Below, one piece after another: positions 631-59,845 of a stretch of 64,000 bases of DNA. The stretch comes from a virus. Below the pieces are notes generated by a model that did no database searches, had not been told where the DNA came from, and worked only from the letters and a program-made list of their open reading frames with translations. The stretch's first letter is position 1. Each line of letters starts with the position of its first letter. The position numbers were made by a program, and so were the translations under genes. Where the stretch lies: positions 27,272 through 91,271 of IMG/VR virus record IMGVR_UViG_3300045946_000018, one strand, 5' to 3'.

Positions 631-852
631 ATGCGACGCATAACCTTTGAGGTAACTGATGAACAGTATTGTAAGCTGAAGGATCATCTAGAGTACGGGC
701 TAATGAAACGCTTCTTTGGTGCACTCGTAGACGACACAGTCGTCATGCTAGATGAGTTTGGTGACTTGTTTATAATAGCGGTGCTATCAAAGCGGGTGAG
801 TTACCGGCAGATAATGGAGGATAAAAATGCTTTGGTTAAAAGTCAACCGTAA
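631..852 (+). CDS. Small protein, possible ribbon-helix-helix DNA binder
   Basis: AAGGAG SD at 615-620 before ATG 631; RITFEVTDEQY matches RITVEVSEHQY in 47802-48041. Confidence 0.6.
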   Translation: MRRITFEVTDEQYCKLKDHLEYGLMKRFFGALVDDTVVMLDEFGDLFIIAVLSKRVSYRQIMEDKNALVKSQP

Positions 853-887
853 CGCACAACCGAAGCACAACGTGCGCTGCCTGCCAC

Positions 888-1055
888 CAGCTGCTCTCTG
901 TACTACCAGCGCGGTCGTTTTTCTTCCGAAGGGTGGCGCCTTTTCCCTGCGCGAAGGGAGTGTTTGTCAAGGCACTGCCTCCAGCGAAGCGGCCTTGACA
1001 AGCAAACGACCGAAGTGCTATAATCACTAGCCACCTTGAGGAAAGGAACGAGCTG
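888..1055 (+). promoter_or_regulatory. Structured hairpin element with embedded sigma70 promoter (TTGACA 995-1000, 18 nt, TG-c-TATAAT 1019-1024)
   Basis: Stems 912-920/1004-1012 and 961-973/992-1004; GCGAAGC apex. Confidence 0.7.
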
Positions 1056-1060
1056 TAATT

Positions 1061-1270
1061 ATGGCGAACATAGATGACCTATCCATTCCAAGCCTCGAAT
1101 CTCAAGGCTTGCAATTAATTCTCACCATACGTGAGCGTAGACGATTCACGCCTGAGAAAGTACGCGAGAAGAAACTCCCGTCAGAAGCTATGCTCAATAA
1201 ACTGAGCGATAAACAGCTCGCTGATCTCTATTATACTCTAGCAGCCAAGATGCAAAAGGAGTTACTGTGA
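1061..1270 (+). CDS. Hypothetical protein
   Basis: Homologue at 48053-48277 (NI.DL.IP...L.LIL..R.RRR). Confidence 0.7.
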   Translation: MANIDDLSIPSLESQGLQLILTIRERRRFTPEKVREKKLPSEAMLNKLSDKQLADLYYTLAAKMQKELL

Positions 1271-2607
1271 AACTAGGAATCCTGCGCGTTGTTCCGATGT
1301 CTCAAATTGAAGTTGATCTAGATGCACGTGGGCGTCAGGCTTATGGTATTATACCTGAACTTGCAGCGTCCATACAGAAGCATGGACTAATTCACCCCAT
1401 TGCAGTGTACTCAGCAAATGGTGAGCCACCATATAAACTTGTTGCTGGTGGGCGTCGATTTATGGCTTGCACTGCACTGAAATGGGAAGAGATTAGTTGC
1501 CGCATATATGACACGCCAATGACTGAGCTGGAATTGAAGGCAGTTGAATTATTCGAGAATCTTGACCGTATGAATTTGAACTATGATGAAGAAGTGAAGA
1601 TGAAAGAGAAGCTTCATCTAACACTGGTTGAAATTCACGGTAGGAAAATAGCAAAGACTGCAGATGCACCTGGACACTCAATACGTGATACGGCACGAAC
1701 ACTTGGTGTTAGTCATGCTACAGTCATACAGGATATGAAACTCGCTGAAGCAATGCGCATTCTGCCTGAACTTGAATTGGATAAGGAGAAAAATAAGTCA
1801 GCTGCGATGAAAAAGCTGACACGATTTGCGAATGTTATCAGTAATAAGATGGCTGTGTCTGAAGCTAAGAAAGACGCCGTCCTTTCAGGCAGAATGACAA
1901 GCCCGGATGATCCACTCGCAGCCTACATAGTAGGAGATTTCTTCGAGAATAAACTCGCACCTAATCAGTTCAATTTTATAGAATGCGATCCGCCGTATGG
2001 AATTGATCTACCAGAGCAGCGAGCTGATGGTGAAACTGATTTCAGTTTGCAGCATGATTATAAGGAAATTTCTGGCCCGGATTATTTAATGTTCTTGAAT
2101 AAGCTGCTCGAAGAATGCTACAAACTAGCGGCAGAGAATGCCTACATTATCCTCTGGTGCGGCCCGCAGCATTTGAATAGGGCACTGGACGCAATGAAGC
2201 GTGCAAAGTTCTCTACTGTTCATATACCTGGAATCTGGAAGAAAGGTGAAAGTGCTGGTCAGGCAATGGGCATGAGAACGAACCTTGGAAATGCGTATGA
2301 GATGTTTGTCTATGGACGTAAAGGTAATGCAGAGTTACGCAAGCAGGGCCGCTCAAATATATTTGACTTTAATGGAGTGCCATCATCACAGCGTATTCAT
2401 CCTACAGAAAGACCACGGGCGCTAATGAAGGAACTCATTGATACCTTCGCTTGGCCCGGGTCAAATATACTAGTTCCATTCGCAGGAAGTGGAGTTACAA
2501 TAGTCACGGCATTTGAACAGGGACATAAAGCCGTTGGCTACGATCTCAGTCAGAATTTCTACAATGCGTACGTGAAGCGTTTAGTTGAGGAGGTAACGGC
2601 TAAATGA
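1267..2607 (+). CDS. ParB-CTPase/HTH domain fused to N6A/N4C DNA methyltransferase
   Basis: GLIHPI, AGGRR, ENLDR ParB motifs; HTH SIRDTARTLGVSHATV; MTase DPPY, HPTERP, PFAGSG. Confidence 0.85.
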   Translation: MKLGILRVVPMSQIEVDLDARGRQAYGIIPELAASIQKHGLIHPIAVYSANGEPPYKLVAGGRRFMACTALKWEEISCRIYDTPMTELELKAVELFENLDRMNLNYDEEVKMKEKLHLTLVEIHGRKIAKTADAPGHSIRDTARTLGVSHATVIQDMKLAEAMRILPELELDKEKNKSAAMKKLTRFANVISNKMAVSEAKKDAVLSGRMTSPDDPLAAYIVGDFFENKLAPNQFNFIECDPPYGIDLPEQRADGETDFSLQHDYKEISGPDYLMFLNKLLEECYKLAAENAYIILWCGPQHLNRALDAMKRAKFSTVHIPGIWKKGESAGQAMGMRTNLGNAYEMFVYGRKGNAELRKQGRSNIFDFNGVPSSQRIHPTERPRALMKELIDTFAWPGSNILVPFAGSGVTIVTAFEQGHKAVGYDLSQNFYNAYVKRLVEEVTAK

Positions 2608-2816
2608 TAGATGCTGATAGAACACTTATATTACTTAGACAAATAGAATCTCTAAGTAGAGAAGGCAAATTAGTAATTGCTGGATCACTGATAGATGCAC
2701 TATATCCGAAGCCTATTCCCGAAATGGATTTAGATATAGTATTTGCGTGCAAGCAAAAAGTGCTTAGTTGGATAGCACAACAACTAGGAGATAATGATGC
2801 CTTACGTTCCAGCTGA
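2604..2816 (+). CDS. Hypothetical protein
   Basis: GAGG SD, overlaps neighbours in operon style. Confidence 0.5.
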   Translation: MIDADRTLILLRQIESLSREGKLVIAGSLIDALYPKPIPEMDLDIVFACKQKVLSWIAQQLGDNDALRSS

Positions 2817-5280
2817 TGGATCACTCAACTCCAAAATAGCTATTGTTGGCGAGCAGCCGGCAAAGTACGAAGCTAGATACAGCAAGCCATTTACTGGCCC
2901 CGCCGGTCGTAATCTAAATGAGTGTTTGCAGAATGCTCGCATACCACGAGGTGGTTGTTATCTGACGAACGTAGTGAAACAAACTGAGTTTGAATTAGAA
3001 CGCTATTTTAATTTGAAGGGTAAGAATCCTGCCGCGACGCAGCTAGGAAAGGCGTGTATAGAGGAGCTACGTGATGAGCTTATGGATTGTCGCGCTAACA
3101 TCATTGTGCCTCTTGGCAATACTGCATTGTTCGCTCTATGTGATAGAACTGGCATTAATAGTTGGCGTGGAAGTGTGCTTGAGTCTACGCTTTTACCAGG
3201 GCGCAAAGTCATTCCTACATTGCATCCAGCTGTGTATACAGATGAGAAGGTACTACAGAACCCAGCTGCATACCTGGCTAAATATCTAATTACTATAGAC
3301 CTTAAGAAAGTCCGTAGTGAGTCTGAATTTCCGGAGATTCGCTTAGCGGACAGAAGATTGAGGATCCAGCCAAACTTCTATGAAGCGCTTACATGGCTGG
3401 AGCGTTGTAAGGTACGTGCTGAGGATGGTGGAATTGTATACTATGATATAGAGTTAACACCAAAGACCCAAGAACTGAGTTGTATTAGCTTCTGCACATC
3501 GCCCGATGATGTAATGTGCATACCATTTGTAGATGCAAACGGAGACTATTTTACTGCTGAGCAAGAATACAAGCTAATGTTGAGCATTGAAGAATTGCTC
3601 AGCAATTCCAGCTGGATGAAAGGGGGACAGAATATTATCTTCGATTCGCACTTTCTATTACGCAAGTATGGTATACGCACTCGTAATATTGTTGCTGACA
3701 CTATGGTAGCTCAGCATATACTCTACCCAGATTTCGGAGGTAAAACGTACCGTGGAAAATCACTTGAATTTATTACGTCAATGTGGACGGATATACCTTA
3801 CTACAAACGTGACGGAAAGTTGTGGCTCACTGGCATAGGCGACTACGCCAAGGGCTGGAATTATAACTGCCTAGATAGCGCAGTATGCGCTGATGCGTTT
3901 CCTAAACAGCTCACCGAGCTCGAAGAGCGTGGTAATTACGACTCGTATGAGCGACAAATAAAACTCATTGGACCTCTGAGTTATATGATGGAGCGTGGAA
4001 TTAAAGTGGATAAAGAAGGAATGGAGCGAGCGTCCAGAGATGCTTTGTTAGAAGCTGATGAATTAACGCAACAAACGTTCGAGGTTATGGGCAGCTCGGC
4101 CTTTAACCTAAATAGCCCGCAGCAAGTAGCGGAATACTTTTATGGTAAGTGTGGAGTTACACCTTATTTAAATAAGAATGGCAAGCCTACTACAGATGAG
4201 GAGGCATTAACACGCATAGCGAATAAGGGATTTAAAGAAGCTAGTATGATCCTCGAGATTCGACGTTTACGTAAGAAGGCATCAACATTTCTAAATGTCG
4301 AGAACGTTGACGATGATGGTAGGATGCGATGTAGCTACAATCCAGTAGGTACACGATTCTCGCGGATTAGTTCGAGTGCAAATATATTCGGTACTGGTGG
4401 AAACTTACAAAATGTACCACATGATGTACTGAGTTATTACGTCGCAGATTCTGGATACGTAATTTATTCACTTGATATGTCGCAGATTGAGGCGCGCATT
4501 GTCGCGTACGTTGGAAACATCACTCAAATGAAGGAAGTATATGAACAAGGTCTGGATATACACAGACAAACGGGAGCACTCATTTTTAATAAGCCTTACG
4601 ATGAAGTCAGTAACGCACCTGGATCGAGTACCATTGGTAATGGAACTTACAGTGAGCGCGATTGGGCAAAGCGTGCCAACCATGCTTTCAATTACGGTTT
4701 TGGTTACAAGTCTTTCAGCTTGCTATATGAAATCCCTGAAAAAGAAGCTAAGTTCATTTATGATAGATACCATTCTGCTTATCCAGGACTTAGAGGTGGA
4801 TACTGGAAGTATGTAGAAGGGTTGCTTAAGGCAACCCGTACGCTCACTAATCTATTTGGTAGAAGAATTACGTTCCTAGGAAAGCTTGATGATAAATTGC
4901 TCAATGAAGCTTACTCGTGTATACCGCAAGGAACATGTGGAGACCTAGTAAATGAGTGGGGATTGAACTTCGTTTATTATAACTCAGATGCGTTGTTCCA
5001 ACGCGTGGAGCTGTTAACTCAAGTACATGATTCAATTAGTATACAAGTGCCGCTGGATTTGCCACTGATAGATCACGCACGTATCTTGACTGCGATTAAG
5101 CGTTCTCTAGAACAGCCGCTGGAGTTCGGCAGAACCCAGTTTGTCGTGCCTGTTGATCTGGTAGTAAATAGTTGTCTCAACAAGAACAAAGGTATAGAGC
5201 TGAAAGGCACGAAGTTTAGTAATGATCCTCGTGTACTGGAAGTGTATTTACAGGACGCTATTCTAACACTGGGAGTTTAA
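2794..5280 (+). CDS. polA: Family A DNA polymerase with N-terminal uracil-DNA-glycosylase-like domain and 3'-5' exonuclease
   Basis: IVGEQP/PFTGPAG/LHPA UDG motifs; YDIE, NIIFD, YNCLD exo motifs; DMSQIEAR, KRANHAFNYG, QVHDS polymerase motifs A/B/C. Confidence 0.92.
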   Translation: MMPYVPADGSLNSKIAIVGEQPAKYEARYSKPFTGPAGRNLNECLQNARIPRGGCYLTNVVKQTEFELERYFNLKGKNPAATQLGKACIEELRDELMDCRANIIVPLGNTALFALCDRTGINSWRGSVLESTLLPGRKVIPTLHPAVYTDEKVLQNPAAYLAKYLITIDLKKVRSESEFPEIRLADRRLRIQPNFYEALTWLERCKVRAEDGGIVYYDIELTPKTQELSCISFCTSPDDVMCIPFVDANGDYFTAEQEYKLMLSIEELLSNSSWMKGGQNIIFDSHFLLRKYGIRTRNIVADTMVAQHILYPDFGGKTYRGKSLEFITSMWTDIPYYKRDGKLWLTGIGDYAKGWNYNCLDSAVCADAFPKQLTELEERGNYDSYERQIKLIGPLSYMMERGIKVDKEGMERASRDALLEADELTQQTFEVMGSSAFNLNSPQQVAEYFYGKCGVTPYLNKNGKPTTDEEALTRIANKGFKEASMILEIRRLRKKASTFLNVENVDDDGRMRCSYNPVGTRFSRISSSANIFGTGGNLQNVPHDVLSYYVADSGYVIYSLDMSQIEARIVAYVGNITQMKEVYEQGLDIHRQTGALIFNKPYDEVSNAPGSSTIGNGTYSERDWAKRANHAFNYGFGYKSFSLLYEIPEKEAKFIYDRYHSAYPGLRGGYWKYVEGLLKATRTLTNLFGRRITFLGKLDDKLLNEAYSCIPQGTCGDLVNEWGLNFVYYNSDALFQRVELLTQVHDSISIQVPLDLPLIDHARILTAIKRSLEQPLEFGRTQFVVPVDLVVNSCLNKNKGIELKGTKFSNDPRVLEVYLQDAILTLGV

Positions 5281-5283
5281 GAA

Positions 5284-5769
5284 ATGACAAACAAGGAATT
5301 TGCTAGATTCTGTAAATACTTCGTTGTAATGACAGACGACGCAGAACAAAGTCATAGAGTATGCTGGTTATGGATAGGTGCTTTAACGGAGGGATATGGA
5401 TTTCTTAAAGTCAAAGGTAAGAATATAAGAGCACACCGACTTATGTATGAGCACGTATATGGTGAGATAAAGGAAGATTACGTAATACATCATAAGTGTC
5501 ACAACAAGCGTTGTGTAAGCCCGTTTCATCTAGAAATGGTAACACGCGAACATAACGTTAGTGAAGCCCAAACTAAGACACATTGTAAGCGTGGACATGA
5601 GCTATCCGATGATAACGTACATATGTATAGAGACAAATACGGAAAGTTTAGAAGATACTGCAAGAAATGCGCTTCAAATTCAGCACGTAATAGATATGCG
5701 GCTCGTACTTTAGTTGATAAATTAACGGATGAAGATATAGCTAAATTGATGAGTCTAAAAGGAGAATAA
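5284..5769 (+). CDS. HNH endonuclease (free-standing, probably homing)
   Basis: CWLWIG..GYG, RAHR, HHKCHNKRCVSPFHL, THCKRGH; absent at the syntenic position in B. Confidence 0.85.
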   Translation: MTNKEFARFCKYFVVMTDDAEQSHRVCWLWIGALTEGYGFLKVKGKNIRAHRLMYEHVYGEIKEDYVIHHKCHNKRCVSPFHLEMVTREHNVSEAQTKTHCKRGHELSDDNVHMYRDKYGKFRRYCKKCASNSARNRYAARTLVDKLTDEDIAKLMSLKGE

Positions 5770-5771
5770 GA

Positions 5772-6971
5772 ATGGCGAGACACTTGAGTAATTTCCTGGA
5801 TGCTTATCTCTACTTTACCGAAGAAACTGAGCCATGCGAGCTTTACCGCAAGTGGGTAGGAGTCAGCATTATTGCTGCAGCATTGCAGCGGAAATGTTAC
5901 TTGCATTGGGGCTCGCAGATTTGGTATCCTAATCTGTACATAGTATTAACCGGTCCTCCAGGTGAGCCGCGTAAGGGTACAGCTATGGCTTCTGGCTACA
6001 GCATTCTGAGACCGCTCAATCTAAAGCTATCTGCAGACCGACTGTCACCTGAGTATTTTATAAAAGAACTCAGTGCCTCACTCACTACAACGCAGCTGGG
6101 CAATGGTAAGTTTATAAATCACTGCAGTATGACAATCTTCAGCAGTGAGTTGACAGTATTTCTGGGATATAAGAACTCGCAGTTCTTAGCTGATTTAACT
6201 GACTTGTATGATTGTAAGGATCCATGGGCGTACAGGACTAAAAATAGTGGGCACTTTGAAGTAACAGGTGCATGGCTAAATATGTTGGCTGCAACCACAC
6301 CTGAGCAAATACAAGCAGCATTGCCAATTGAAGCAATAGGAGGTGGCTTTGCAAGTCGAGTGTTATTTATATTCGCTGATAGGAGAGGTAAAACTGTCCC
6401 TATGCCAATAGAGAACGAAGAACTTAAGGCGAAATTAAGAAGCGATTTAGAAGAGATTTCGTTGTTAGCTGGTCCATTTGTTGCTACAGAAGATTACATA
6501 CTCACTCGCACTGAGTGGTATTTGAACGAGTCTCAGGAGAACCAAATAATTCAGGATCCAAGATTCGCTGCGTATTATAGCAGGAAAGCGAGCACTGCAA
6601 CAAAGCTCAGTATGATACTCTGCGCGTCACGTAGCGACGATATGAAGCTGAGAGGTGAGGATTTCGTTAACGCAATCGATATGCTTAATGAAGCTGAGAT
6701 ACAAATGCCACGTGCATTAAGTGGCGTTGGTAGGAGTGATTATGCTGAGCTGCTTCCAATGGTAATGGAAGAAATACTGAGACATAAAGAGGTGACTATA
6801 AGGTATTTGATGAACCGATTTTCGCACGATACGACGTACTTCCATTTGATTAAGATGGTAGAAACACTTGAGATTATGGGCGTTTTGAGTTACGCTCCAT
6901 TAACTAAGAAGATATATGCGAATCCTAACTTCGGGAATAGTTCGAGTGGAGAAAGTGCGGTTGTCAATTGA
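5772..6971 (+). CDS. DUF3987-like P-loop ATPase (putative replicative helicase)
   Basis: YPNLYIVLTGPPGEPRKGT Walker-A-like, LTDLYDC, GGFASR; homologue 53123-54283. Confidence 0.65.
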   Translation: MARHLSNFLDAYLYFTEETEPCELYRKWVGVSIIAAALQRKCYLHWGSQIWYPNLYIVLTGPPGEPRKGTAMASGYSILRPLNLKLSADRLSPEYFIKELSASLTTTQLGNGKFINHCSMTIFSSELTVFLGYKNSQFLADLTDLYDCKDPWAYRTKNSGHFEVTGAWLNMLAATTPEQIQAALPIEAIGGGFASRVLFIFADRRGKTVPMPIENEELKAKLRSDLEEISLLAGPFVATEDYILTRTEWYLNESQENQIIQDPRFAAYYSRKASTATKLSMILCASRSDDMKLRGEDFVNAIDMLNEAEIQMPRALSGVGRSDYAELLPMVMEEILRHKEVTIRYLMNRFSHDTTYFHLIKMVETLEIMGVLSYAPLTKKIYANPNFGNSSSGESAVVN

Positions 6972-7115
6972 GGCCGGAAGACTCCGCTGGACCGCTGCTG
7001 ATTATAGCACTTACGTTGCCTAATGCTGTCAAGGACCCGCTACGCTGGGGATCCTTGACAGCGGCAACTCCAGTGCAGAGAGTAGACGCGGTCCGGCGGA
7101 AAAATCTGCCGGCCT
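6971..7115 (-). promoter_or_regulatory. Rod-like hairpin element with minus-strand TTGACA (7027-7032), 20 nt, TATAAT (7001-7006)
   Basis: Nested stems 6971-77/7109-15, 6983-95/7088-7100, 7025-35/7052-62; GCGTAGC apex on minus strand. Confidence 0.7.
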
Positions 7116-7184
7116 GGAAGTATGGAGAGTTGCTGGCAGCCGCACTCCCGTTGGTCGTGAGTATGGTTAAAATCTAACCATAAA

Positions 7185-10100
7185 CTATCTTCTCTCACGT
7201 CTCTCTGAGCGTTCACGTCTCGCTCCTCTTGTTGGCTCCTGCGAATACCAGCCCATCAAACTGTCGTAAACATTCTCACCGCGCTTTTGTGCTCTAGTAA
7301 ACTTACTTATTTGACGGGTGCCAGGTACACCTAAAAGTGTAGCTGTTGGTTCCCACCACGGCGGGCTGAGTGGATCATTTCTGTAGGCGCGTGCAGCATC
7401 TCGTGCTGTTTCTATTGCAGGCCCGGCTATTCCTTTACCGTACCTCATGCCACCTATAATAGGCAGTCTCTCTATTTGTCCTACCGCCAAATCAAGCGCA
7501 AGTTGTGGTAGTGAATGTCTAGCCTGCATTCCTTTCCGCACATCTTCAACAGGATCAGGTAACGCTGGTTGAATGTGCAGCAGTTTGTACAACTCGTTAA
7601 TGATCTGGGTGATGATGAGGAATCCAATTACGTTGCGCATAAATCTCATATTACTGCGTGGTGCTCCAGGCTCTTCCCAACTGCCAGGACCACTGGCTAC
7701 TCCACCTGGAGGTATCTGCCCACCACCTCCACCACCAATCTTACCTTTAGTGAGCACTTCGTCTCGCAGGAAATTGAAGTCACTAATCAAGAACGTCTGG
7801 AATTGCGTGACAAGTTTACCTAATGGGTTACGCTGTATGCCTGCAAGATCGCCTGGCATCGTACTTCCTTGCGTACGCACCACAAGATCGTCTGCGTAGC
7901 GTACAGCATCCTTATGATTGTATCCGACCTTCGGACTCGTGGCGAACTTGTAGCCGGCGTTCCACGTAACAAGTGCAGCTTCCATATCCAGCAATTCAAT
8001 CAGCTTGAATCCTGGCCGGCCAACCATTTGCTGCAGTTCAGCTAAGTTACCTCTGCCTAAGGCACGAAATAATTCTCCTGGTCGTCTACCTACGAATGCA
8101 CTAGTAACTTCATTGTAGGCATCAATGAACTTACGTGAGCTGAGTATCTCACTGTTACGTAATGCGAAATCCTTCTTCTTGCCTAGTGGTAAATCGGCTA
8201 ACATCTCGAATGCTGATCCTAGTGTCTTTGGTATACCAAGTGTTTGGCTAGTATTTACCAATGTAGACAGCTGGATTGTACCTGATCTTATAAGCCCAGA
8301 TAGTGTAGCGTACGCAACGTTCTTGTTGACAGTATTTAGTATCATCCGCTGCGTTGCAGTGAATTGCTTGTTTGTACCGGTTGCAATATAGTCAGTCCAG
8401 TTACGTAGCTCTTCATACAGGCCTGGTTTATTGTCCTTAAGTTGCCACGTCTCTTTACCAGTAACAGGATCAGGTAAGTTAGTTTCAATAAGCTCATGCA
8501 TCTTCGCAATGAATGGACTCATGTGAATGTCCTTCAGCGCCGATTGAGCATAAGTATCAAGTATTTTTAGTGCGTTCATTTCGGCCGTGTAGAATGCATG
8601 CTTGCGTACAATGTACGGGAAGTTTGTTGCTCGATGTTTGATGTACTTTGCGTGCACAGAATCGGAAGTATCGCGGGCAAGATCTACTTTAATACCAAGC
8701 GCATTCAGCACGTTTATTGTGCGCGCGAAGGTTTGGTAGTCATCCACTCGTGCAAGTGGCTCACGTCCAGTTGCAGCACGTACTTCATTTACTCGATTAT
8801 ATAAGTAAGCATAAACACCATCAAGATTTGCCTGCAATCGCCGCTCAGCAGAAGTAAGCGGCTGAGGTGTGACCTTATTATATGTAAGTATTCGTTGCCC
8901 GTCTCCACCTTGACGCGCATAACCATTAGCGCCAATATTCTCTAGTGATTTTGAACTGAAGCCACGACCTAATTCTTCCATATCTGCGTGTAAAGTATTC
9001 AGCTCGGCATTCAGGTTCTTTTGTGCAGTGCGATACGCATAGTAGAGAAATTCTGTACCTGCTGCTTTGTGCTGGCGCAATGGTAGCTTTAAGTTCCACT
9101 CACCACCACCCGGCTTAATGTCACGTGCATTCTGAATGCCTCGCACCTCACTCTGCCACAAAGGTACGTACGTATTGCCACTTGCAACGCGCTGCTTAAC
9201 AACTCTATCTCCTGGAATTACGTTCTCAGGATCGAAGCGCATATTACGCGGATTCGTTGAGTTTGGAGGTTCAGGATTATTGATACCTTCTAGGTACCGC
9301 TCAAACATTGCTACATCTTCAGGACGTGCACCAAACAGAAATTCTCGTACGTTCTTTCCTGCCTTACGCATATCAGCTTGCAATCGCTGAGCGGCCATAC
9401 GTGCTTCACGAGACCAGTTACCTCCTATTGCACCTTCCTCACCAAGCATAGTATTCACATCATTCAGTATATCTATGAACGCCCTACGCTCAGACGTGTC
9501 AATGCCAGCTCTTGCTGATTCGCGCATAGCTTTGTAGTGAGGTATCAAATCAGCCGGCAATTTATCTGTAATATCCACGCCTTGCTCTATAGCACGTAAC
9601 ATTTCTTCTATTTGTTCCGGACCAATAGGTGATGTTTTACTCTCAACGTATGCACCTGCAGCGTCCTTAGAAATCGGGACAGCTCGTAGATCGTCACCAC
9701 TGTTAAGACGAGCATCAGTCCTGACAACGTCCTTAGGAACGAGTTCATAGTTCCTGCCCTTCATTACGTATAAATCAAGGTCATTCTCTGCAGCAACACG
9801 AGTTGCTTCACGTATCAGTTCTTGGCCAGTAAACTCATGTGCACGCTCGATTGGTAGACCAGTAAAATCAGCTTGTGCTTGTAAGGAACGTTTTAATACC
9901 TGCCCTAATTCAGGGCTCGTTCTTCCTCGCTGTATCTCAAGCTCAATATTTGCAAGTGATGTACGGGCGTTCATTCCTCTAGTATCAACGAAAATAGCAT
10001 CAGGCCTGCCTTCTATAGTACGTACTTGTATTGGTGCTGATGATATAAGCTCTGTGTACTTAAAGGGTAATATAGATGCCTTAGCACTGGGTTCTAAATT

Positions 10101-12722
10101 AGTAACGGATTTTATTTCAGTGAAACCAACATTCGTGACTACAGGACGGGTATATGCATAGTAAGCTGTATCCGCCGTACGTCTTGCTACATCTTCAGGC
10201 AGTCCCATACTGATAAGAGTTTGTCTCAGTTGTGATGGTCGCACTCCTTTACTAAAAGCATCCATGACGTCGGCCAGATTCATGCCTATTTGCTGCAGTG
10301 TTTCTTGAATTTCTTCTTTAAATGACTCTACATTCTTACGCACGGCGCGTTCTTCAAAAACGCTTTGTTCTGCTGCGGCACGTGATTCTGGAGTACTTGT
10401 CTCATATATAGGTCTACGAGTGGGCCTATTTATAAGAGGCTCTGTATCTGGCGCTTTCACTACCTTACGTTTACGTTTAGGCTTCTCAATGACAGGAGAT
10501 GTATCTATTACTGGTTCTGCAGGTGCAGGTATTTCTACTTCAGTTCCTGCCGGTGCGTTTTCTAGTACAGCTTCAGTTGCTGCTTGCTGAACAGCTGGCT
10601 TATTGACGGTATAATAACGAGTGTAATTACCTTGCTTTACTTGAGTTATACTACCTTCATTCAGAAGATTTTGAATTGCTTCATTAACTTCACTACGTGC
10701 AAACCCCACTCTATTTACTATAGCTTGTATTGTAGCCCCACCTTCCCGAGATAGAAAATCCCTCACTGCTCCACTAACATCTGAAACTGGCATTTCAGAT
10801 AGCTCAGATAAACTGCTCTCCACAATTCCTCTTTCAGACTTCGCAGCGCGTACTTTTTTAAGTTGTGGTATTAACTCCTGAATTGTTTCCTCATCTACAC
10901 CAAGCTGCCGTAATCCACGCTCTACGCTTTTCGCGTCAGTATTAAGAGCTTCACGTTTCAAGTTTGCTAACGACGTTTTACGATCAGCTGGACTTGTTTC
11001 CTCATTTTGAATTGCTTCTATTGCCGCGAACGCAGGCCCTCTATATTCAGTGCGAGTAGGAGTTATTACTTCTGGAGCCGTAGGCGATACCGCAGCTACT
11101 GCTGGAGTCTCGGGTGAAACTGGTGCTGGTACAGTTTCAGGAGCAACAGTAGCTGCAGCCTCAACACGTGGTGTTTCGATAGGTGCAATTTCACGAGTCG
11201 GTCTTGGTGCCTCAGGCGTAACAGGAGCTAAAGCTGTCTCACCTCGCACTACAACTTCAGGCTGCACTGGCCGCTCAGCAGTCATAGTTGGTGCTGCACG
11301 CTGAGGTTCAGGTGCGCGTTGAGCTTGAGGCTCAGCTGACCTTGGTGCTTCAGGTGTAGGAGCAGCAGGTCTTGCAGCTTCAGGCGTTGGTGTTGGGCGC
11401 GTAGGCTCAGCAGGAGCTCTAGGTGTACCTTGTGGTTTAGGTACGCGGCCTAAGCGCTCTCGTAAATCCGTCATGATACTGCCTCTATTTGGATCAGCTG
11501 CCCATTCATCCGTTACACGATCTAGCTCTGATTTGTACGCACGCAATTCAGCTGGATCATATACTATATCTGCAGCAGCTCCACCACCAGCTGGCCCTTC
11601 ATCCGGCGGCTTAGGTCCTCGTGGTGGCATGCCGACTTCACGATCAGCTTCATCTCTAAACTTTCCACGAGCTTCTTCAAGCGCGTTATTTAGTCGAGGA
11701 TTTTTTGATGCTGCATTCGCAAGATCTTCTGCAGCTGCTGCGGCTTGCGCGTCAGTTGTAGCACGTGACATACGAGTTTTGTATTCAGCAATCTTTGAGC
11801 GTATTTCTGGAGCAGCTTTGCGTACGCCCTGATCTAGCTTGTAGAATAGATAAAGTTCAGTGGCAAAGCTAAGCACTCGAGCTGTATCCTCGTTAAGTAC
11901 GCCTGTTGCCACAAGTGCGCGACCAGGTAGTTCAGCTACATCCTTAATTAAACCGGTTACAGTGCCTACAGCTTTATTTACGTTCTTTGCAATATCTGAG
12001 CGTGGTTCAGGAGTTAGTGACGTAATGCGCTGATCCATTCGGTTGAATATATCACGGTAATGAGTTTTACTTTCGGGCCCACCGGCCATTGGTCCGCCAC
12101 GTGCAACACGTGCAAGTTGAGTATTCAAAATATCGCTAACTGCAGTTGCAGCACCAAATGCAAATGCTCCAGCACCGGCGAGTACATTACCACCAGCTTC
12201 GGCAATATCGCGCACAAAATTCGTGGATCGTTGCAGCGTACCATATAATCCAGGAGAGTATTGTCGCGTCGGCGTTGCTCCTGGTGCTCCAGGCTGAAGG
12301 TCACGTCTGCTAGTATAACGCTGTGACTCTGGAGCTTGAGTAGGAACTGTGCGAATTCCACTAAAACTTCCAGTGCCGGTATATTCGCGTGTTGTATCTG
12401 GTACTAATTTTTCAGCTACCGATCCAATAGCTGAACCAACATCACTTGCTATTTTGCCAGGATCTATACTAGGTAGATAGCCAGAAATTCCTGTGCCTGA
12501 TGGTTCTGCAGGCGGCACGTATTGAGGCGGCAATTGACCAGGGCTGAGCCTCTGCTCAGCGGGTAAGCCGCTATTATAGTTATTTAATAATGCTTCATTC
12601 AAGTCCGGCTTCTTAGGAGCAAGCGGCGTTTTGCCTATTCCTAAGCGTCCAAGTAATTCTTCATTTTCTGGCTCACCTTGAAGAAGGTAGCGTTCTACGT
12701 CAATAGGTGCGACTGTTGACAT
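7185..12722 (-). CDS. Large putative internal virion / DNA-ejection protein (1845 aa)
   Basis: Last gene of structural operon; Pro/Ala-rich linkers; C-terminal ADD.V..TQGS...R...G....QFQTF shared with 54335-59521. Confidence 0.65.
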   Translation of the reverse strand: MSTVAPIDVERYLLQGEPENEELLGRLGIGKTPLAPKKPDLNEALLNNYNSGLPAEQRLSPGQLPPQYVPPAEPSGTGISGYLPSIDPGKIASDVGSAIGSVAEKLVPDTTREYTGTGSFSGIRTVPTQAPESQRYTSRRDLQPGAPGATPTRQYSPGLYGTLQRSTNFVRDIAEAGGNVLAGAGAFAFGAATAVSDILNTQLARVARGGPMAGGPESKTHYRDIFNRMDQRITSLTPEPRSDIAKNVNKAVGTVTGLIKDVAELPGRALVATGVLNEDTARVLSFATELYLFYKLDQGVRKAAPEIRSKIAEYKTRMSRATTDAQAAAAAEDLANAASKNPRLNNALEEARGKFRDEADREVGMPPRGPKPPDEGPAGGGAAADIVYDPAELRAYKSELDRVTDEWAADPNRGSIMTDLRERLGRVPKPQGTPRAPAEPTRPTPTPEAARPAAPTPEAPRSAEPQAQRAPEPQRAAPTMTAERPVQPEVVVRGETALAPVTPEAPRPTREIAPIETPRVEAAATVAPETVPAPVSPETPAVAAVSPTAPEVITPTRTEYRGPAFAAIEAIQNEETSPADRKTSLANLKREALNTDAKSVERGLRQLGVDEETIQELIPQLKKVRAAKSERGIVESSLSELSEMPVSDVSGAVRDFLSREGGATIQAIVNRVGFARSEVNEAIQNLLNEGSITQVKQGNYTRYYTVNKPAVQQAATEAVLENAPAGTEVEIPAPAEPVIDTSPVIEKPKRKRKVVKAPDTEPLINRPTRRPIYETSTPESRAAAEQSVFEERAVRKNVESFKEEIQETLQQIGMNLADVMDAFSKGVRPSQLRQTLISMGLPEDVARRTADTAYYAYTRPVVTNVGFTEIKSVTNLEPSAKASILPFKYTELISSAPIQVRTIEGRPDAIFVDTRGMNARTSLANIELEIQRGRTSPELGQVLKRSLQAQADFTGLPIERAHEFTGQELIREATRVAAENDLDLYVMKGRNYELVPKDVVRTDARLNSGDDLRAVPISKDAAGAYVESKTSPIGPEQIEEMLRAIEQGVDITDKLPADLIPHYKAMRESARAGIDTSERRAFIDILNDVNTMLGEEGAIGGNWSREARMAAQRLQADMRKAGKNVREFLFGARPEDVAMFERYLEGINNPEPPNSTNPRNMRFDPENVIPGDRVVKQRVASGNTYVPLWQSEVRGIQNARDIKPGGGEWNLKLPLRQHKAAGTEFLYYAYRTAQKNLNAELNTLHADMEELGRGFSSKSLENIGANGYARQGGDGQRILTYNKVTPQPLTSAERRLQANLDGVYAYLYNRVNEVRAATGREPLARVDDYQTFARTINVLNALGIKVDLARDTSDSVHAKYIKHRATNFPYIVRKHAFYTAEMNALKILDTYAQSALKDIHMSPFIAKMHELIETNLPDPVTGKETWQLKDNKPGLYEELRNWTDYIATGTNKQFTATQRMILNTVNKNVAYATLSGLIRSGTIQLSTLVNTSQTLGIPKTLGSAFEMLADLPLGKKKDFALRNSEILSSRKFIDAYNEVTSAFVGRRPGELFRALGRGNLAELQQMVGRPGFKLIELLDMEAALVTWNAGYKFATSPKVGYNHKDAVRYADDLVVRTQGSTMPGDLAGIQRNPLGKLVTQFQTFLISDFNFLRDEVLTKGKIGGGGGGQIPPGGVASGPGSWEEPGAPRSNMRFMRNVIGFLIITQIINELYKLLHIQPALPDPVEDVRKGMQARHSLPQLALDLAVGQIERLPIIGGMRYGKGIAGPAIETARDAARAYRNDPLSPPWWEPTATLLGVPGTRQISKFTRAQKRGENVYDSLMGWYSQEPTRGARRERSERRERR

Positions 12723-12731
12723 TTACGTTTC

Positions 12732-12898
12732 CTCTGCTAGCGGCATTTCTCCCTGCAGGTGCAAGAGAGTGTAGTTCCTTTGTGGAGAACCTGCTAGAGA
12801 AAAATGCGGGGCCATTTTTCTCTTGCAGAACCTCCAGTCGTCACAACACGGGAATTGCCCCTGCTGGGAAAATGCCATCGCGCCGGTAGCACAAGAGA
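12732..12898. repeat. Rod-like imperfect inverted repeat
   Basis: ggcattt/aaatgcc, gcagg/cctgc, gtagttcc/ggaattgc, agagaaaaatg/catttttctct nested stems. Confidence 0.7.
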
Positions 12899-12971
12899 GA
12901 TCAGCGGCACTAGGGCTCCCGTTGGTCGCAGCTTCATCTCCAGCTATGGTTAAAATCTAACCGTAACAATC

Positions 12972-14000
12972 TTACTCTTTGGGCCTGAGTTTCCAGGGTA
13001 TCGGCTGCTTTAAGCTTGGATAAAATACTTGCTCAAGGTATTGTTGCACGTTCATTGCGCCACTAGGGTAATTCTGAGCTGCGTCATAAACCTCTTGGGC
13101 CGTATAGCGATGACCATCTACAGTAGGCAAATCTATCTTCTTCATTCGAGTACCTGAATAGATGCGGCCAGGATTATCCTCAAAGATATACACGTACGGC
13201 TGTTTGCTTGTCGCATGAAACAGCTCAGCTTCAGGTGCTAATTCACTCTCATCGTACGAGTTCTGTAGTGCATAGCCACCAGGTCTCTTCGAGCGTAGAT
13301 TCTGTTCTGCATCTGTTGCTACTTTCATCTCAGTGCGAGCATCCGTGCGCGCTTTAGCTATTTTCTCTGCACGCTCTTTCTCGAGCTGCATCATCTTCTG
13401 TATATTCTCGTTACGCTCTTGAGCAAGTGTCATTCCTTTGGCTGAGAACTCCTGACCACCGATCTTCAGCTTTACGTATTCATCATTCTGTTTATCTAGC
13501 AGTGCAGCCTCTCTCGGATACAGTTGACGGATGCGCTCAGCATTGGCATTGCTGGCATTAACAGCTGCCATACTTTGCTCAATATTAGCTCGTATGTTCT
13601 GCTTCTCTAAACCGAGCAGCTCAGTAACGCGGTTTGATTGTGCTTGATACAGGCCTGTCTGTGCACGCTCCTGTGCAACGCGTTCTGGCAACAGTGTTTC
13701 GGTACTGATTCGCTGAGCACGACTCGCACCAGCTGCTTCACGTGACTGGTCAATATCCGCAAGCATCTTAGCGGCAATGTGAGGCTCTTCTGCACGTAAC
13801 CGTGCTGCCTGCGCTTTATTCAAATCACCTGAAGTTTCACGGTACGCAATCTCACTTTGTACATTACGTGCCTGTATAATGTCCTGCACGCTGCGTAGTC
13901 GCAGTGCTTCTCGTTCTGTGTCGAGTCGGCCCATAGCTGCAACCTGTTCTGGATTAAGCCCCGCAAGACTTCCACTTTCAAATCCTCCGGGGCTTAGTAG
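12972..14000 (-). CDS. Putative ejection protein, C-terminal part, probably reached by -1 frameshift from 13994-14554
   Basis: Frame open from the slippery site to ATG 13934; AGLNPEQ upstream of the ATG is conserved as AGLTPEQ in B. Confidence 0.7.
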   Translation of the reverse strand, partial: LLSPGGFESGSLAGLNPEQVAAMGRLDTEREALRLRSVQDIIQARNVQSEIAYRETSGDLNKAQAARLRAEEPHIAAKMLADIDQSREAAGASRAQRISTETLLPERVAQERAQTGLYQAQSNRVTELLGLEKQNIRANIEQSMAAVNASNANAERIRQLYPREAALLDKQNDEYVKLKIGGQEFSAKGMTLAQERNENIQKMMQLEKERAEKIAKARTDARTEMKVATDAEQNLRSKRPGGYALQNSYDESELAPEAELFHATSKQPYVYIFEDNPGRIYSGTRMKKIDLPTVDGHRYTAQEVYDAAQNYPSGAMNVQQYLEQVFYPSLKQPIPWKLRPKE

Positions 14001-14006
14001 AAAGGG
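13955..14006 (-). promoter_or_regulatory. -1 programmed ribosomal frameshift signal
   Basis: C CCT TTC (14006-14000) in frame 0 then 9-bp stem taagccccg/cggggctta with inner extension. Confidence 0.8.
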
Positions 14007-14554
14007 GCAATATCTAGTATGCTGGGATCACGTCTAGCTGCAGCAGTTCTTATTGGTGCTGGTGCATTAGTTACGGGAACTGGAGCCGTAGTAGCTGGAG
14101 TAATCACGGGTGCTGTCTGTGTACGTGCAGGTGGCTGAGCTGGTGCTACGTTAGTCGGTCTGGTTGCTGCAATGTCACGAAGCGTATTTGAGAATGCACC
14201 GTACTCCGGCGTGCTCGTAATATTTCGTGGCTCAGGCAAGTTGAGGTCGAATGTGTACGAGCCAGATGGCGTTGCCTTAACGCTGTTCAGACCAGGACGG
14301 TCTGGCTTCGTGATGCCACCGTGCAAGTCAATAAGCTGTTTAATTTGTGCTGATCGCGCCGCGTCGCGTTTCTCGATGGCAGATTGAGCGGCTTTACTGC
14401 TAATCATATTTGCAGCGGCGGTACCAATTACTCCACCTGCACCCTCAGGGTCCATTTGCCTACCCATGTTCGCGAGCAGTAACTGGAAGTTGGGATCACT
14501 TAACATACCGCTAAAACTCCACGGTTGCTGTGTGGCTGCTGAACCTTCTGCCAT
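13994..14554 (-). CDS. Putative internal virion protein (short frameshift product)
   Basis: MDPEGAGGVIG matches MDPRGAGGILG in 60760-61869; both end D..PF. Confidence 0.7.
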   Translation of the reverse strand: MAEGSAATQQPWSFSGMLSDPNFQLLLANMGRQMDPEGAGGVIGTAAANMISSKAAQSAIEKRDAARSAQIKQLIDLHGGITKPDRPGLNSVKATPSGSYTFDLNLPEPRNITSTPEYGAFSNTLRDIAATRPTNVAPAQPPARTQTAPVITPATTAPVPVTNAPAPIRTAAARRDPSILDIAPFY

Positions 14555-14617
14555 GATAAATTCCTTTGGTTAAAGTTTAACCACAACGCACCGACGCGCA
14601 GTATAGCGCGCCACTGA

Positions 14618-14769
14618 CTCTCTTGGTACTTCCCACCGCCGCAGCCTTTCCGATCGGGCCACCCATCCCTTCCACAGCGTAGGGTAGCGCTTGTCAAGCA
14701 TCCCAGCGGAGCGGATGCTTTACAAGCAAGCGTACCGAAGCGACAATCCCACGGGTGGCACGAGAGGAG
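14618..14769 (+). promoter_or_regulatory. Structured hairpin element, same family as 888-1055 (TTTACA 14719-24, 17 nt, GACAAT 14742-47)
   Basis: gcttgtcaagcatcc/ggatgctttacaagc stem, CCAGCGGAGCGG apex, gccaccc/gggtggc helix. Confidence 0.65.
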
Positions 14770-14777
14770 CTAAGGCG

Positions 14778-15083
14778 CTAAAACAATACATCGCCTACAA
14801 CTAGCGTACCCTTTGAGCTATGATCAGACCACGGATTAATTGCTACATATAATTGCCACCTGTATGTGCCAGCAATGTTCAATACTCCTGCCTCTACTAC
14901 GTACTCAACACGTCCGTCAGTTCCATCCGTAATATTAGTGAGCGGCTTTACTACCTGCGTGCCATCAGGCTTCACTAACTTTACTTGTTTAGAGCCAGCT
15001 GTAGATACGTCTAGTGTTTCACCATTATCTAGTACTGTCCAACGTAGCTTCACACCTACAGCATTTTTATGAATGTCGTACAT
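14778..15083 (-). CDS. Small structural protein (BppU-like beta fold)
   Basis: LVKPDG..TDGTDGRVEY....G.L..AG.Y; homologue 62063-62365. Confidence 0.6.
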   Translation of the reverse strand: MYDIHKNAVGVKLRWTVLDNGETLDVSTAGSKQVKLVKPDGTQVVKPLTNITDGTDGRVEYVVEAGVLNIAGTYRWQLYVAINPWSDHSSKGTLVVGDVLF

Positions 15084-40240: not shown

Positions 40241-40389
40241 ATTTAAAAAGTTTTAGCTTCGGAAAAAGGGGTCGGGGTTTCTTTACTGGTTTTCATAATT
40301 GGTTACAATTTTCCGTTAATAAATTTATTTAAATATGGAAATTAGGAAAGCATAAATTAAATGGAACATGTTCGGAATAAACTTTTTTC

Positions 40390-40405
40390 TTGACACATAC
40401 TCATA

Positions 40406-40417
<12 letters not shown>
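40390..40417 (+). promoter_or_regulatory. sigma70 promoter
   Basis: TTGACA-16-TAAAAT with extended TG. Confidence 0.65.
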
Positions 40418-40625
<208 letters not shown>

Positions 40626-42049: not shown

Positions 42050-42089
42050 TCAGCGAATTAAAATTTAACCACTGGAGGTAAATTTCGCA

Positions 42090-54283: not shown

Positions 54284-54307
54284 GTTCCAGTGTTAAAATT
54301 TTAAATC

Positions 54308-54332
54308 GGAGGGAAGCTAACAACTTCCCTCC
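54308..54332. terminator. Stem-loop between convergent operons
   Basis: ggagggaag/cttccctcc. Confidence 0.6.
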
Positions 54333-59548: not shown

Positions 59549-59717
59549 GCACCAAGGGGTCCCCCGTAATTTGCTTTGCTGCTTGACAAGCGAGTCGCAC
59601 AGTTATATTGCCAGCAAGGCGCCTCCTTCGATCGTCGCCCCAGCTGGCAATCGTAACTGTGCTTGCGCTAACGCTTCCTCGCTTGTAAAGCATCGCAAAT
59701 TACGAGCCCCTAAGTGC
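59549..59717 (-). repeat. Rod-like hairpin element, family 3
   Basis: cgtaatttgc/gcaaattacg, gcttgacaagcgag/ctcgcttgtaaagc, gcacagtta/taactgtgc, attgccagc/gctggcaat. Confidence 0.85.
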
Positions 59718-59845
59718 TACACGCTGGAATAAAATCAGCGAATTAAAATTTTATCACTGGAACCTGTTCACCAAAGGTGAACACCGTGGGCGGGGTGCCG
59801 TGCAAGCACATAAAGTCCTCGCAATTAAAATTTTATCAATGCAGG

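Follow-up and report, generated by a model that had tools for sequence, protein, structure and literature searches.

A host-type promoter set within a long conserved DNA palindrome recurs in a group of uncultured soil phages, and we find this promoter-in-hairpin layout to be both real and unusual. Sequence comparisons lead us to posit, tentatively, that these loci are modular promoter cassettes whose promoter function depends on DNA structure, a reading that we consider possible rather than probable. A sequence-only reading had proposed three intergenic elements in phage A, at 888-1055, 6971-7115, and 14618-14769 of the window (the entire 64,000-nucleotide stretch analyzed, from IMG/VR record IMGVR_UViG_3300045946_000018). 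All three are present at these positions, and the search of related phages that it had suggested places them in a cassette family with 14 promoter-bearing copies and one promoter-less member (E4), carried by phage A and its relatives G001, G002, G004, and G005.

Each cassette is built in the same order: it opens with a 15-bp palindrome (GGTTA-N5-TAACC), continues with a short spacer module, and leads into a rod of 145-170 nt. The palindrome anchors each cassette, 125-165 nt upstream, and the three starting elements (E1-E3) reach ~130 nt further 5' than first delimited, to palindromes at 834-848 (E1), 7179-7165 (E2, minus strand), and 14568-14582 (E3).

Cassettes of phage A

E1 (831..1060, plus strand) has an AAC-loop hairpin (865-875) between its palindrome and the rod (888-1055), which includes a core stem at 964-1001 and a -35 box, TTGACA, at 995-1000. 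An 18-nt spacer leads to TGcTATAAT (hexamer 1019-1024), with a predicted start at ~1031, and the replication operon follows immediately downstream (ATG at 1061). E2 (6946..7182, minus strand; rod 7115-6971, core 7061-7026) has its -35 box at 7032-7027 and TATAAT at 7006-7001, separated by a spacer of 20 nt. It lies at the convergence of the helicase gene and a gene coding for an 1845-aa protein, and its predicted RNA would be antisense either way. E3 (14565..14791, plus strand; rod 14618-14769, core 14691-14725), which has an ortholog in G001, displays weak boxes (TTTACA at 14719-14724 and GACAAT at 14742-14747, with a 17-nt spacer) and is antisense to the flanking minus-strand genes; its palindrome also precedes, on the opposite strand, the SD-ATG of the gene running from 14554 to 13994.

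E4 (12706..12964, minus strand) is an added member of the family, the segment 12964-12725 showing the same 5' module and rod as the others (nhmmer E = 2e-11), with a palindrome at 12962-12948, a CGACCAACGGGAG hairpin, and a rod at ~12897-12732. It has a different hairpin in place of the TTGACA core and retains a TACACT hexamer. The gene for the 1845-aa protein lies immediately downstream, a slot in which relatives have a full promoter cassette.

The apex described as common to E1-E3 is borne out: the 12-mer CCAGCGNAGCGG occurs exactly three times in the window, at 981-992 (plus strand, E1), 7048-7037 (minus strand, E2), and 14703-14714 (plus strand, E3), with N being A, T, and G, respectively. 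With one mismatch allowed there are four matches against 0.76 expected from shuffles, none of which reached four. E1 and E2 had also been said to share a sequence, and AAGTGCTATAATCA is found in both.

Selection on the folded form

As had been proposed, the fold rebuilds a promoter. The -35 hexamer lies within the 3' half of a perfect stem, YTGTCAAG...CTTGACAR, and the -10 hexamer within an internal loop, such that the mean pairing probability over 14 cassettes is at least 0.9 at the -35 box, 0.5 at -12, 0.13 at -11, 0.3-0.4 from -10 to -4, and again at least 0.9 from -1. The helix beyond this bubble begins at -3 to -1, with one exception at +2. The original picture of a paired -35 box with an unpaired TATAAT is hence correct for the perfect stem and the internal loop, and has to be tempered for E3, with its weak boxes, and for E2, with its 20-nt spacer. 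The core stem covaries between T..A and C..G (eight versus six sequences), and the first helix past the -10 box is represented by 13 distinct, fully Watson-Crick sequences in 13 rods.

The apex three-base loops take the forms GCGAAGC, GCGTAGC, and GCGGAGC. In DNA, though not in RNA, C(GNA)G loops have exceptional stability, while stable RNA hairpins favor GNRA or UUCG tetraloops. The emphasis that the sequence-only reading had placed on these loops as a DNA-type feature is supported by their strong enrichment on the promoter strand: NC(GNA)GN' mini-hairpins number 24 on this strand and three on the other, where 3.9 per strand are expected, and 13 versus zero within the 14 cores, where 0.57 are expected, although the cassette copies are kin by descent and gene conversion and such counts exceed the number of independent observations. 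Taken together, the covarying stems, the open -11 position, the restart of the helix, and the strand bias of the C(GNA)G loops indicate that folding of the rod is under selection, with the selected form probably being DNA rather than RNA.

Both strands fold equally well, and G.T pairs constitute 5.5% of all pairs, which together place the pairing at the Watson-Crick level. The promoter strand is singled out by the loops and the bubble only, and not by the rod stems; the idea of one design on a single folding strand therefore survives for the former and not for the latter. The single-strand DNA folds are strong for E2, E3, and E4 (z-scores of -8.6, -3.3, and -3.6), whereas that of E1 is branched and reaches only -1.7. 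TTGACA is kept in two copies with a 20-nt spacer, a spacing that, going by the sequence, leaves it unusable in duplex DNA, and the fold of both has a 4-nt bulge. Opposite the spacer between the boxes, the 5' arm of the folded rod measures only 14-17 nt, and thus the hairpin geometry is no better than the duplex for the copies with spacers of 17-18 nt. The unpaired -10 box could also be the mere cost of keeping the palindrome's other strand free of a mirror-image promoter.

The rod with its central bubble resembles the layout of 6S RNA, and the GGTTA-N5-TAACC palindrome holds symmetric -10-like hexamers that could give a bidirectional start. One might hence envisage that the rod is transcribed from the upstream palindrome as a decoy RNA, which would mimic an open promoter and trap the host RNA polymerase. 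We find this hardly credible: the loops are of the DNA type, TTGACA and TATAAT are preserved as promoter boxes of DNA, spaced as in promoters and located before genes, and Rfam gave no match at gathering thresholds and nothing relevant up to E = 5, permissive settings included. The 6S RNA does not require the letters of TTGACA and TATAAT.

Gene context and a possible structure-dependent promoter

For ten of the 15 cassettes, a gene follows directly downstream and in the same orientation; hence, they are likely to be first of all ordinary duplex promoters of the sigma70 type, an assignment that is supported by the conserved boxes. The arrangement known from Frpo, where the promoter points away from its gene in duplex DNA and reaches it, on the 5' side, through the hairpin form alone, does not hold for these ten and is seen in three copies only (E3, its G001 ortholog, and the copy at 29036- in G002), with E2 showing neither arrangement. 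In four of the 15 copies the orientation is other than sense to the operon around them, and these four have weakened or mis-spaced boxes. Relative to the downstream genes, the mini-hairpin loops are on the non-template strand. The 1845-aa virion protein resembles a polyvalent protein, and its neighbors are all polyvalent-protein-like.

We propose that in duplex DNA the TTGACA-(17-19)-TAnnnT boxes would act as a host sigma70-type promoter driving the gene just downstream, namely the replication operon in the case of E1 and the large virion-protein gene in relatives. This promoter is placed in the 3' arm of the 145-170 nt palindrome, itself capped by the DNA-stable C(GNA)G mini-hairpins. Upon folding of the strand, the -35 box would come to lie in perfect duplex, the bases from -11 onward would be unpaired, and duplex would resume at -3 to -1, such that the folded cassette would imitate an open promoter complex. 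Folding might come about by supercoil-driven extrusion, comparable to the early promoters of phage N4, or during a transient single-stranded state. We infer that folding alters the action of the promoter: the duplex promoter could be switched off, or RNA polymerase might start on the hairpin and run the opposite way, towards the palindrome.

The early promoters of N4 form hairpins from GC-rich heptamers whose loop contains a sheared G:A pair, and they extrude at physiological supercoiling (PMC4496689). Like N4, the carriers are dsDNA podophages, and the hairpin promoters of both combine a GC-rich heptamer with a loop of three bases that a sheared G:A pair closes, a type of loop that permits such extrusion. 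However, the N4 hairpins are 5-7 bp long, lie on the template strand, and serve the phage (virion) RNA polymerase, whereas in the cassettes the promoter is of the sigma70 type and its non-template strand bears the 70-bp rod, at the tip of which the mini-hairpin sits; no phage protein was assigned to an RNA polymerase family.

The main rival to this structure-dependent promoter is an RNA-level composite element comparable to the promoter and RNase III hairpin pairs of phage T7, to which we assign a modest chance. The rod would fold in read-through transcripts that arrive from upstream genes, yielding dsRNA that is cut by host RNase III or that insulates neighboring cistrons, while the duplex sigma70 promoter in the 3' arm would give transcripts of its own without the 5' arm, such that processed and primary RNAs have nearly the same 5' end. 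In T7, R6.5/phi6.5 and R3.8/phi3.8 are paired regulatory elements (PMC6938266). These pairs, along with phi13/R13, are intercistronic hairpins with the promoter inside the hairpin, as in phi6.5, or forming its 3' arm, as in phi13, and the promoter RNA lacks the 5' arm. The rods are likewise intercistronic, have hairpins of at least ~20 bp with an internal loop and an embedded promoter, like the T7 composite sites, and occur in phages of a related general type (podophages with a family A polymerase). In keeping with RNA-level action, cleavage in the internal loop at ~-11 to -4 would produce a 5' end roughly at the promoter start, the scarcity of G.U pairs resembles that in the T7 hairpins, and E1 is covered over its full length by RNA-library contigs (782-1175 and 800-1090), though these are contigs only, of low depth and with possible DNA carry-over. 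Moreover, the position upstream of the large gene is taken by a rod lacking a promoter both in phage A (E4) and in phage B (59549-59717), which suggests that the rod can have a role without a promoter. On the other hand, the strand-specific excess of C(GNA)G triloops has no rationale at the RNA level, the four copies that are not sense to their operon fit this account poorly, and the rods exceed T7 RNase III sites two- to threefold in length. T7 further differs in having promoters for its own polymerase and arms of 10-15 bp, as opposed to host-type promoters, arms of ~70 nt, and DNA-type loops. These promoter-less rods, the nested promoter of T7, and the relatives with no or one cassette count against a structure-dependent promoter.

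Variation and spread of the family

Among phages that are ~80% identical in protein, the number of cassettes per genome ranges from zero to six. E2 is present in phage A only, and L009 has a bare palindrome at the equivalent site. Cassettes always abut the GGTTA-N5-TAACC palindrome and occur on either side of it, while in other phages the cassette slots are filled by unrelated leader families. Apex modules and 14-mers are common to the copies inside one genome, which indicates gene conversion between them. These observations raise the possibility of a duplicative or recombining palindromic repeat, which would persist by spread or homogenization beside dispersed palindromes and whose sole effect on the phage would be an outward promoter. 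Its analogs would be bacterial MITEs such as Correia and ERIC and the T4 PeSL, which are dispersed intergenic repeats combining a promoter with a stem-loop, variable between close relatives, and recombining. We regard this as improbable, since orthologous cassettes keep their position and orientation across phages of ~80% protein identity with fully compensated helix changes, and a selfish repeat would not be expected to hold the bubble at a constant register to the -10 box. Unlike MITEs, no terminal repeats or target duplications were seen with the cassettes. The T4 PeSL, at ~70 bp, has its small stem-loop beside the promoter and not around it, whereas in the cassettes the promoter is within the hairpin.

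Replication genes and the question of priming

The replication genes of phage A code for a UDG-like domain, a 3'-5' exonuclease, and a family A DNA polymerase (2794..5280, plus strand), along with a 399-aa DUF3987 protein (5772..6971, plus strand). The latter had been described as a DUF3987-like ATPase beside PolA; the protein is indeed there, though its predicted fold is that of an MCM-like AAA+ helicase, in spite of the primase label given by PHROGs. The apparent lack of a primase stands, in that the replication genes examined, that of the DUF3987 protein included, yielded no primase domain.

Against this background, the sequence-only reading had linked the hairpins to primase loss. The promoter strand would be the lagging or displaced strand, on whose folds the host RNA polymerase would make a primer for synthesis of the complementary strand in place of the missing primase, as at the F plasmid Frpo, the M13 minus origin, and the mitochondrial OriL. 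Consistent with such a role are the GNA loops, the bubble register, and the location of the boxes on the 3' arm, with which RNA made from the hairpin would head to the 5' end of the folded strand. Further, cassettes are mostly co-oriented with genes and, if forks follow transcription, the promoter strand would be the lagging-strand template, although orientation is confounded with gene direction and is not independent support. However, the same PolA and helicase module is found in four complete genomes with zero (G003), one (G001), two (G004), and six (G002) cassettes, and the relatives with none or one argue against an essential priming role. Additionally, a few sites per 45 kb would imply lagging-strand fragments of 5-20 kb, the E1-type copies are perfectly placed duplex promoters, and the host primase may serve. 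We hence consider priming distinctly improbable. The proposed tie between hairpin-promoter design and replication priming is not borne out by the evidence, and a dedicated primase-replacement role is the least supported part of the structure-dependent promoter proposal.

At OriL, RNA polymerase primes at a stem-loop that forms on the displaced strand only; each genome has one such site, where initiation takes place in a poly-T loop and -35 and -10 boxes are absent. The phages resemble that system in pairing a family A polymerase with a helicase while showing no primase, and differ from it in that their cassettes vary in number and are dispensable among relatives. The Frpo/ssi promoters of the IncF and IncI1 conjugative plasmids (Masai & Arai 1997, as described in PMC7736820, PMC11541004, and PMC9849209) act in folded single strands only, where the host RNA polymerase reads them (PMC7736820). 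In these, too, one strand folds into a long imperfect hairpin that re-forms a sigma70 promoter mismatched around -10, as found in the pairing profile of the 14 cassettes; the boxes are on the 3' arm, and RNA made from the hairpin would run towards the 5' flank. E1 also precedes a gene for a ParB-methyltransferase, a type likewise found behind Frpo in plasmid leading regions. Nevertheless, blastn of E1 found no similar sequence among 72,556 plasmid records, Frpo serves genes on its 5' side whereas most cassettes are functional-looking duplex promoters for the gene on the 3' side, and the carrier is a dsDNA phage with no known single-stranded entry stage.

Conclusions

In its full form, the structure-dependent promoter proposal would have a tailed dsDNA phage use the host sigma70 RNA polymerase on folded DNA. 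The cassette would be a rightward promoter in the relaxed duplex, and the extruded or exposed strand a pre-opened hairpin promoter firing the other way, resulting either in a direction switch coupled to supercoiling or replication, or in RNA primers made on the lagging or displaced strand, in a replisome with a polymerase and an MCM-like helicase but no primase. We judge this whole scheme to be unlikely.

To our knowledge, the hairpin promoters so far described as read by sigma70 belong to conjugative plasmids and single-stranded phages. Should the DNA fold prove active, host-sigma70 hairpin promoters would be extended to lytic dsDNA phages, and the cassette would be a compact natural part with its output set by DNA topology or replication. 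If the RNA-level account is right, the T7-style nesting of promoters in processing hairpins would also occur with host-type promoters, in phages without a polymerase of their own. Under either, the 14 natural variants with their compensatory changes offer a clear and cheap experimental handle. Moreover, the replisome of this clade, with its family A polymerase, MCM-like helicase, and no detectable primase, merits attention in its own right.

A clade-restricted family of promoter cassettes

The sequence-only reading had described three intergenic elements of a single design in phage A (888-1055, plus strand; 6971-7115, minus; 14618-14769, plus), and all three read as it described; they belong to the larger cassettes E1 (831-1060), E2 (6946-7182) and E3 (14565-14791). 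There are exactly three copies of the apex 12-mer CCAGCGNAGCGG, at 981-992, 7037-7048 and 14703-14714, in which N is A, T and G respectively (4 matches against 0.76 expected if one mismatch is allowed), and E1 and E2 have AAGTGCTATAATCA in common. The promoter boxes take the form TTGACA-18-TGcTATAAT in E1 (predicted start about 1031), TTGACA-20-TGcTATAAT in E2 and the weaker TTTACA-17-GACAAT in E3. Alignment reveals conservation extending far upstream of the extents first assigned to these elements, with a 15-bp palindrome, GGTTA-N5-TAACC, at the start of every one. A fourth copy of the palindrome led to a promoter-less member, E4 (12964-12725, minus), directly 5' of a gene for a 1845-aa protein; it combines the 5' module of E1-E3 and a long rod with a different central hairpin, and is recognized by the family profile (E = 2e-11).

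The cassette comprises, in order, the palindrome, a spacer of 60-100 nt that contains a small AAC-loop hairpin between GA/AG flanks, a pyrimidine-rich ...TACTTCC motif, and a rod of 145-170 nt. The stem of the AAC-loop hairpin covaries (CC/GG, GC/GC, GGC/GCC, GCAC/GTGC). One version, CGA-CC-AAC-GG-GAG, in which tandem G.A flanks bracket the AAC loop, is common to E2 (7157-7145), E4 (12928-12916) and a phage B leader (36952-36940), always on the minus strand.

A search for related loci from one protein alone found nothing; relatives were gathered as 80 loci via an alignment of helicase homologs, together with four complete genomes of the clade (~80% protein identity). Across this set the family is restricted to that clade, with 14 promoter-bearing copies in addition to E4. 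Rfam holds nothing resembling the cassette, and blastn of E1 against plasmid records gave no match. Scanning viral contigs for the apex pattern returned 8 loci, with the same element only in L007, which is a copy of phage A; in L008 a similar core hairpin lacks a properly spaced -10 box, and the others look like chance matches.

The window itself is two phage records placed end to end, the last 19 kb of phage A (1-19043) and phage B (19044-64000), which is related and complete. The ends of the latter (19044-19170 and 63874-64000) are identical over 127 nt; hence, the 44,830-bp phage B assembly closes into a circle. Judged on the helicase protein, the closest relatives with a name are PaP2/119X-type Pseudomonas phages and a Desulfofustis phage (31-37% identity), and a 15-kb megablast query found no match among phage records. 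The public sequencing runs containing phage A are soil metagenomes. The virion modules encode giant proteins of 1845 aa (7185-12722, minus) and 1728 aa (54335-59521, minus), which match nothing in Pfam or among PDB sequences and only phrog_9880, of unknown function; as their language-model neighbors are 'large polyvalent protein' clusters, they are likely to be multi-domain proteins that are injected. Neither gave any sign of an RNA polymerase.

The fold and its register with the promoter

Folded as single-stranded DNA and compared with shuffles, E2 stands out strongly (z = -8.6) and E3 and E4 moderately (-3.3 and -3.6); the E1 fold is branched and, at z = -1.7, not significant by itself. The upper stem reads YTGTCAAG...CTTGACAR, with its outer pair covarying as C-G in eight sequences and T-A in six, and its halves are separated by 17-33 nt, which fits a hairpin and not a dimeric protein site. 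All 14 promoter-bearing cassettes have a TAnnnT-type hexamer 17-20 nt after TTGACA. When rods are aligned on this -10 hexamer, the mean pairing probability is at least 0.9 over the -35 box, 0.5 at -12, 0.13 at -11, 0.3-0.4 from -10 to -4, and again at least 0.9 from -1. In 12 of 13 rods, the first helix past this gap begins between -3 and -1; its sequence differs in each of the 13 but is always fully complementary, and the set includes a strand-swapped pair, GGGTGGC/GCCACC. These features indicate that folding is under selection, with its register fixed relative to the promoter. These inferences draw on per-sequence folds and helix tables in place of an RNAalifold consensus, which recovered the core stem alone because the underlying MAFFT alignment of 14 rods is not structure-aware. 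A selfish or recombining repeat explains part of the picture, accounting for the patchy distribution of the cassettes and their within-genome gene conversion, but leaves the fixed register of the unpaired -10 bubble unexplained.

A generic scan for intergenic rods was noisy, and only its strongest matches were used. Three rods in phage B (41880-42054 and 44057-44221, plus; 59549-59717, minus) are very stable, at about -50 kcal/mol as DNA. We rejected them as instances of the cassette design, given their TTGACA-like words on the 5' arm and the lack of a recognizable -10 box. One of them lies between a dispersed motif and the start of the large gene, which is the slot of E4.

Orientation and gene context

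Cassette orientation in the complete genomes tracks that of the genes, and 10 of the 15 copies lie directly 5' of a co-oriented gene, be it the replication operon, the large virion gene or a 262-aa gene. Three are antisense, namely E3, its ortholog in the complete genome G001, and the copy at 29036 (minus) in another, G002; with their layout, rod - palindrome - Shine-Dalgarno - ATG, transcription from the duplex promoter would head away from the gene past the palindrome. E2 is located at a convergent gene junction. Among these non-sense copies, E2 and the G002 copy have a 20-nt spacer, and E3 and the G001 copy have weak boxes; the sense copies have spacers of 17-19 nt. From sequence and gene context, we propose that a duplex promoter is the primary function of the cassettes. 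In Frpo, the F-plasmid single-stranded hairpin promoter read by host RNA polymerase, the served gene is reachable from the folded strand only (PMC7736820), an arrangement absent from most cassettes here. Occlusion of the ribosome-binding site by the rod was rejected, since several copies have a true Shine-Dalgarno outside it.

Folding as DNA or as RNA

Neither rod strand folds better than its partner and G.T pairs are scarce (5.5% on the promoter strand, 8% on the other), and the stems give no answer as to which molecule folds. NC(GNA)GN' mini-hairpins number 24 on the promoter strand versus 3 on the other (3.9 expected per strand), and 13 versus 0 inside core hairpins (0.57 expected), with perhaps 6-9 of these observations being independent, given the relatedness of the copies. 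In DNA, C(GNA)G triloops have exceptional stability; in RNA they are unremarkable. The hairpins of phage N4, with a sheared G:A loop, extrude at physiological supercoiling (PMC4496689). The loop bias, the stability of such loops in DNA and the N4 precedent together tilt the interpretation towards folding at the DNA level. An N4-like reading, with a phage polymerase acting on the GNA hairpin, was rejected, as the strand is wrong and no polymerase was found.

The main rival is a T7-like rod, processing or insulating at the RNA level, with a promoter nested in it. T7 phi6.5/R6.5-type sites are known promoter/RNase III pairs (PMC6938266), and T7 too nests promoters in hairpins, with phi6.5 inside one and phi13 forming the 3' arm of another. 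Three observations fit this possibility: phages A and B have promoter-less rods at a shared position, the rods are intercistronic, and E1 is covered in full by RNA-library contigs, which carry neither starts, ends nor strand, their ends at hairpin apices being assembly breaks; uncovered regions were not counted as evidence. Nevertheless, an RNA-level rod leaves unexplained both the GNA loop bias and the four non-sense copies.

The primase question

The hairpins had also been proposed to prime replication in place of a missing primase. Pfam and PHROG scans of the visible phage A genes and the phage B early region identified a ParB-methyltransferase, a UDG-exonuclease-PolA fusion, an HNH endonuclease, a PD-(D/E)XK exonuclease, a Sak4-like annealing protein and a DUF3987 protein (5772-6971, plus), and no Toprim, DnaG or archaeo-eukaryotic primase domain. 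The DUF3987 protein is labeled 'DNA primase' in PHROG 14296 and several GenBank phage records. Its profile found nothing among PDB sequences; its structural model (pLDDT 85.7) matches MCM helicases (Foldseek E about 1e-9), and its fold is confidently predicted to be that of an MCM-like AAA+ helicase whose C-terminal end is winged-helix-like. The 'primase' label on the family looks like an annotation error passed between records. Hence, the absence of a recognizable primase holds for the genes examined.

Its replacement by the cassettes fares worse and is the weakest part of the original claim. Genomes with the same replication module carry 0 (G003), 1 (G001), 2 (G004) or 6 (G002) copies, and in G001 and G003 unrelated leaders occupy the intergenic slots used by cassettes elsewhere, which sits poorly with an essential role in priming. 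The orientation pattern in G002 was dropped as an argument against a replication role: on a circular or concatemeric map replication accounts for it as well as gene direction does, and as the two are confounded, orientation does not discriminate.

Dispersed palindromes and neighboring leaders

Each genome of the clade has 11-14 copies of the GGTTA-N5-TAACC palindrome, most of them 2-20 nt 5' of a Shine-Dalgarno and its start codon, with others where convergent genes end; the phage A sites within the window are 834-848, 7165-7179, 12948-12962 and 14568-14582. The palindrome has symmetric -10-like hexamers (TAAAAT / TAGATT), placed such that starts would fall at both edges; it is a candidate bidirectional promoter or operator. 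A related phage B motif, GAATTAAAATTTAACCACTGGAG, is present at more than 20 gene starts (for example, 42056-42079, 54285-54318 and 59741-59762).

At the base of the E4 rod begins a seven-codon mini-ORF (12746-12723, minus; ATG CCG CTA GCA GAG GAA ACG TAA), whose stop abuts the start codon (ATG) of the 1845-aa gene. At this site relatives carry a comparable ORF of 9-11 codons (MTPRAAYGDNK, MTACAMHGD), and the mini-ORF may be a coupling leader. G001 (L098-L100) has a different repeated leader module, ...GGAGTCG..CT.ATAGTCATAGC...TTATAC..TAGGT, in two slots (29300-29870 and 40340-40605) where other phages have the hairpin cassette.

Conclusions

The hairpin-promoter structure is real, conserved and unusual. 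What stands of the sequence-only reading is a conserved host-type promoter set in a selected fold; most copies lack an Frpo-like arrangement, and the replacement of a primase is the least supported part. We propose that the cassette is first of all a host-type promoter, and that selection acts on the folding of its palindrome, probably at the DNA level.
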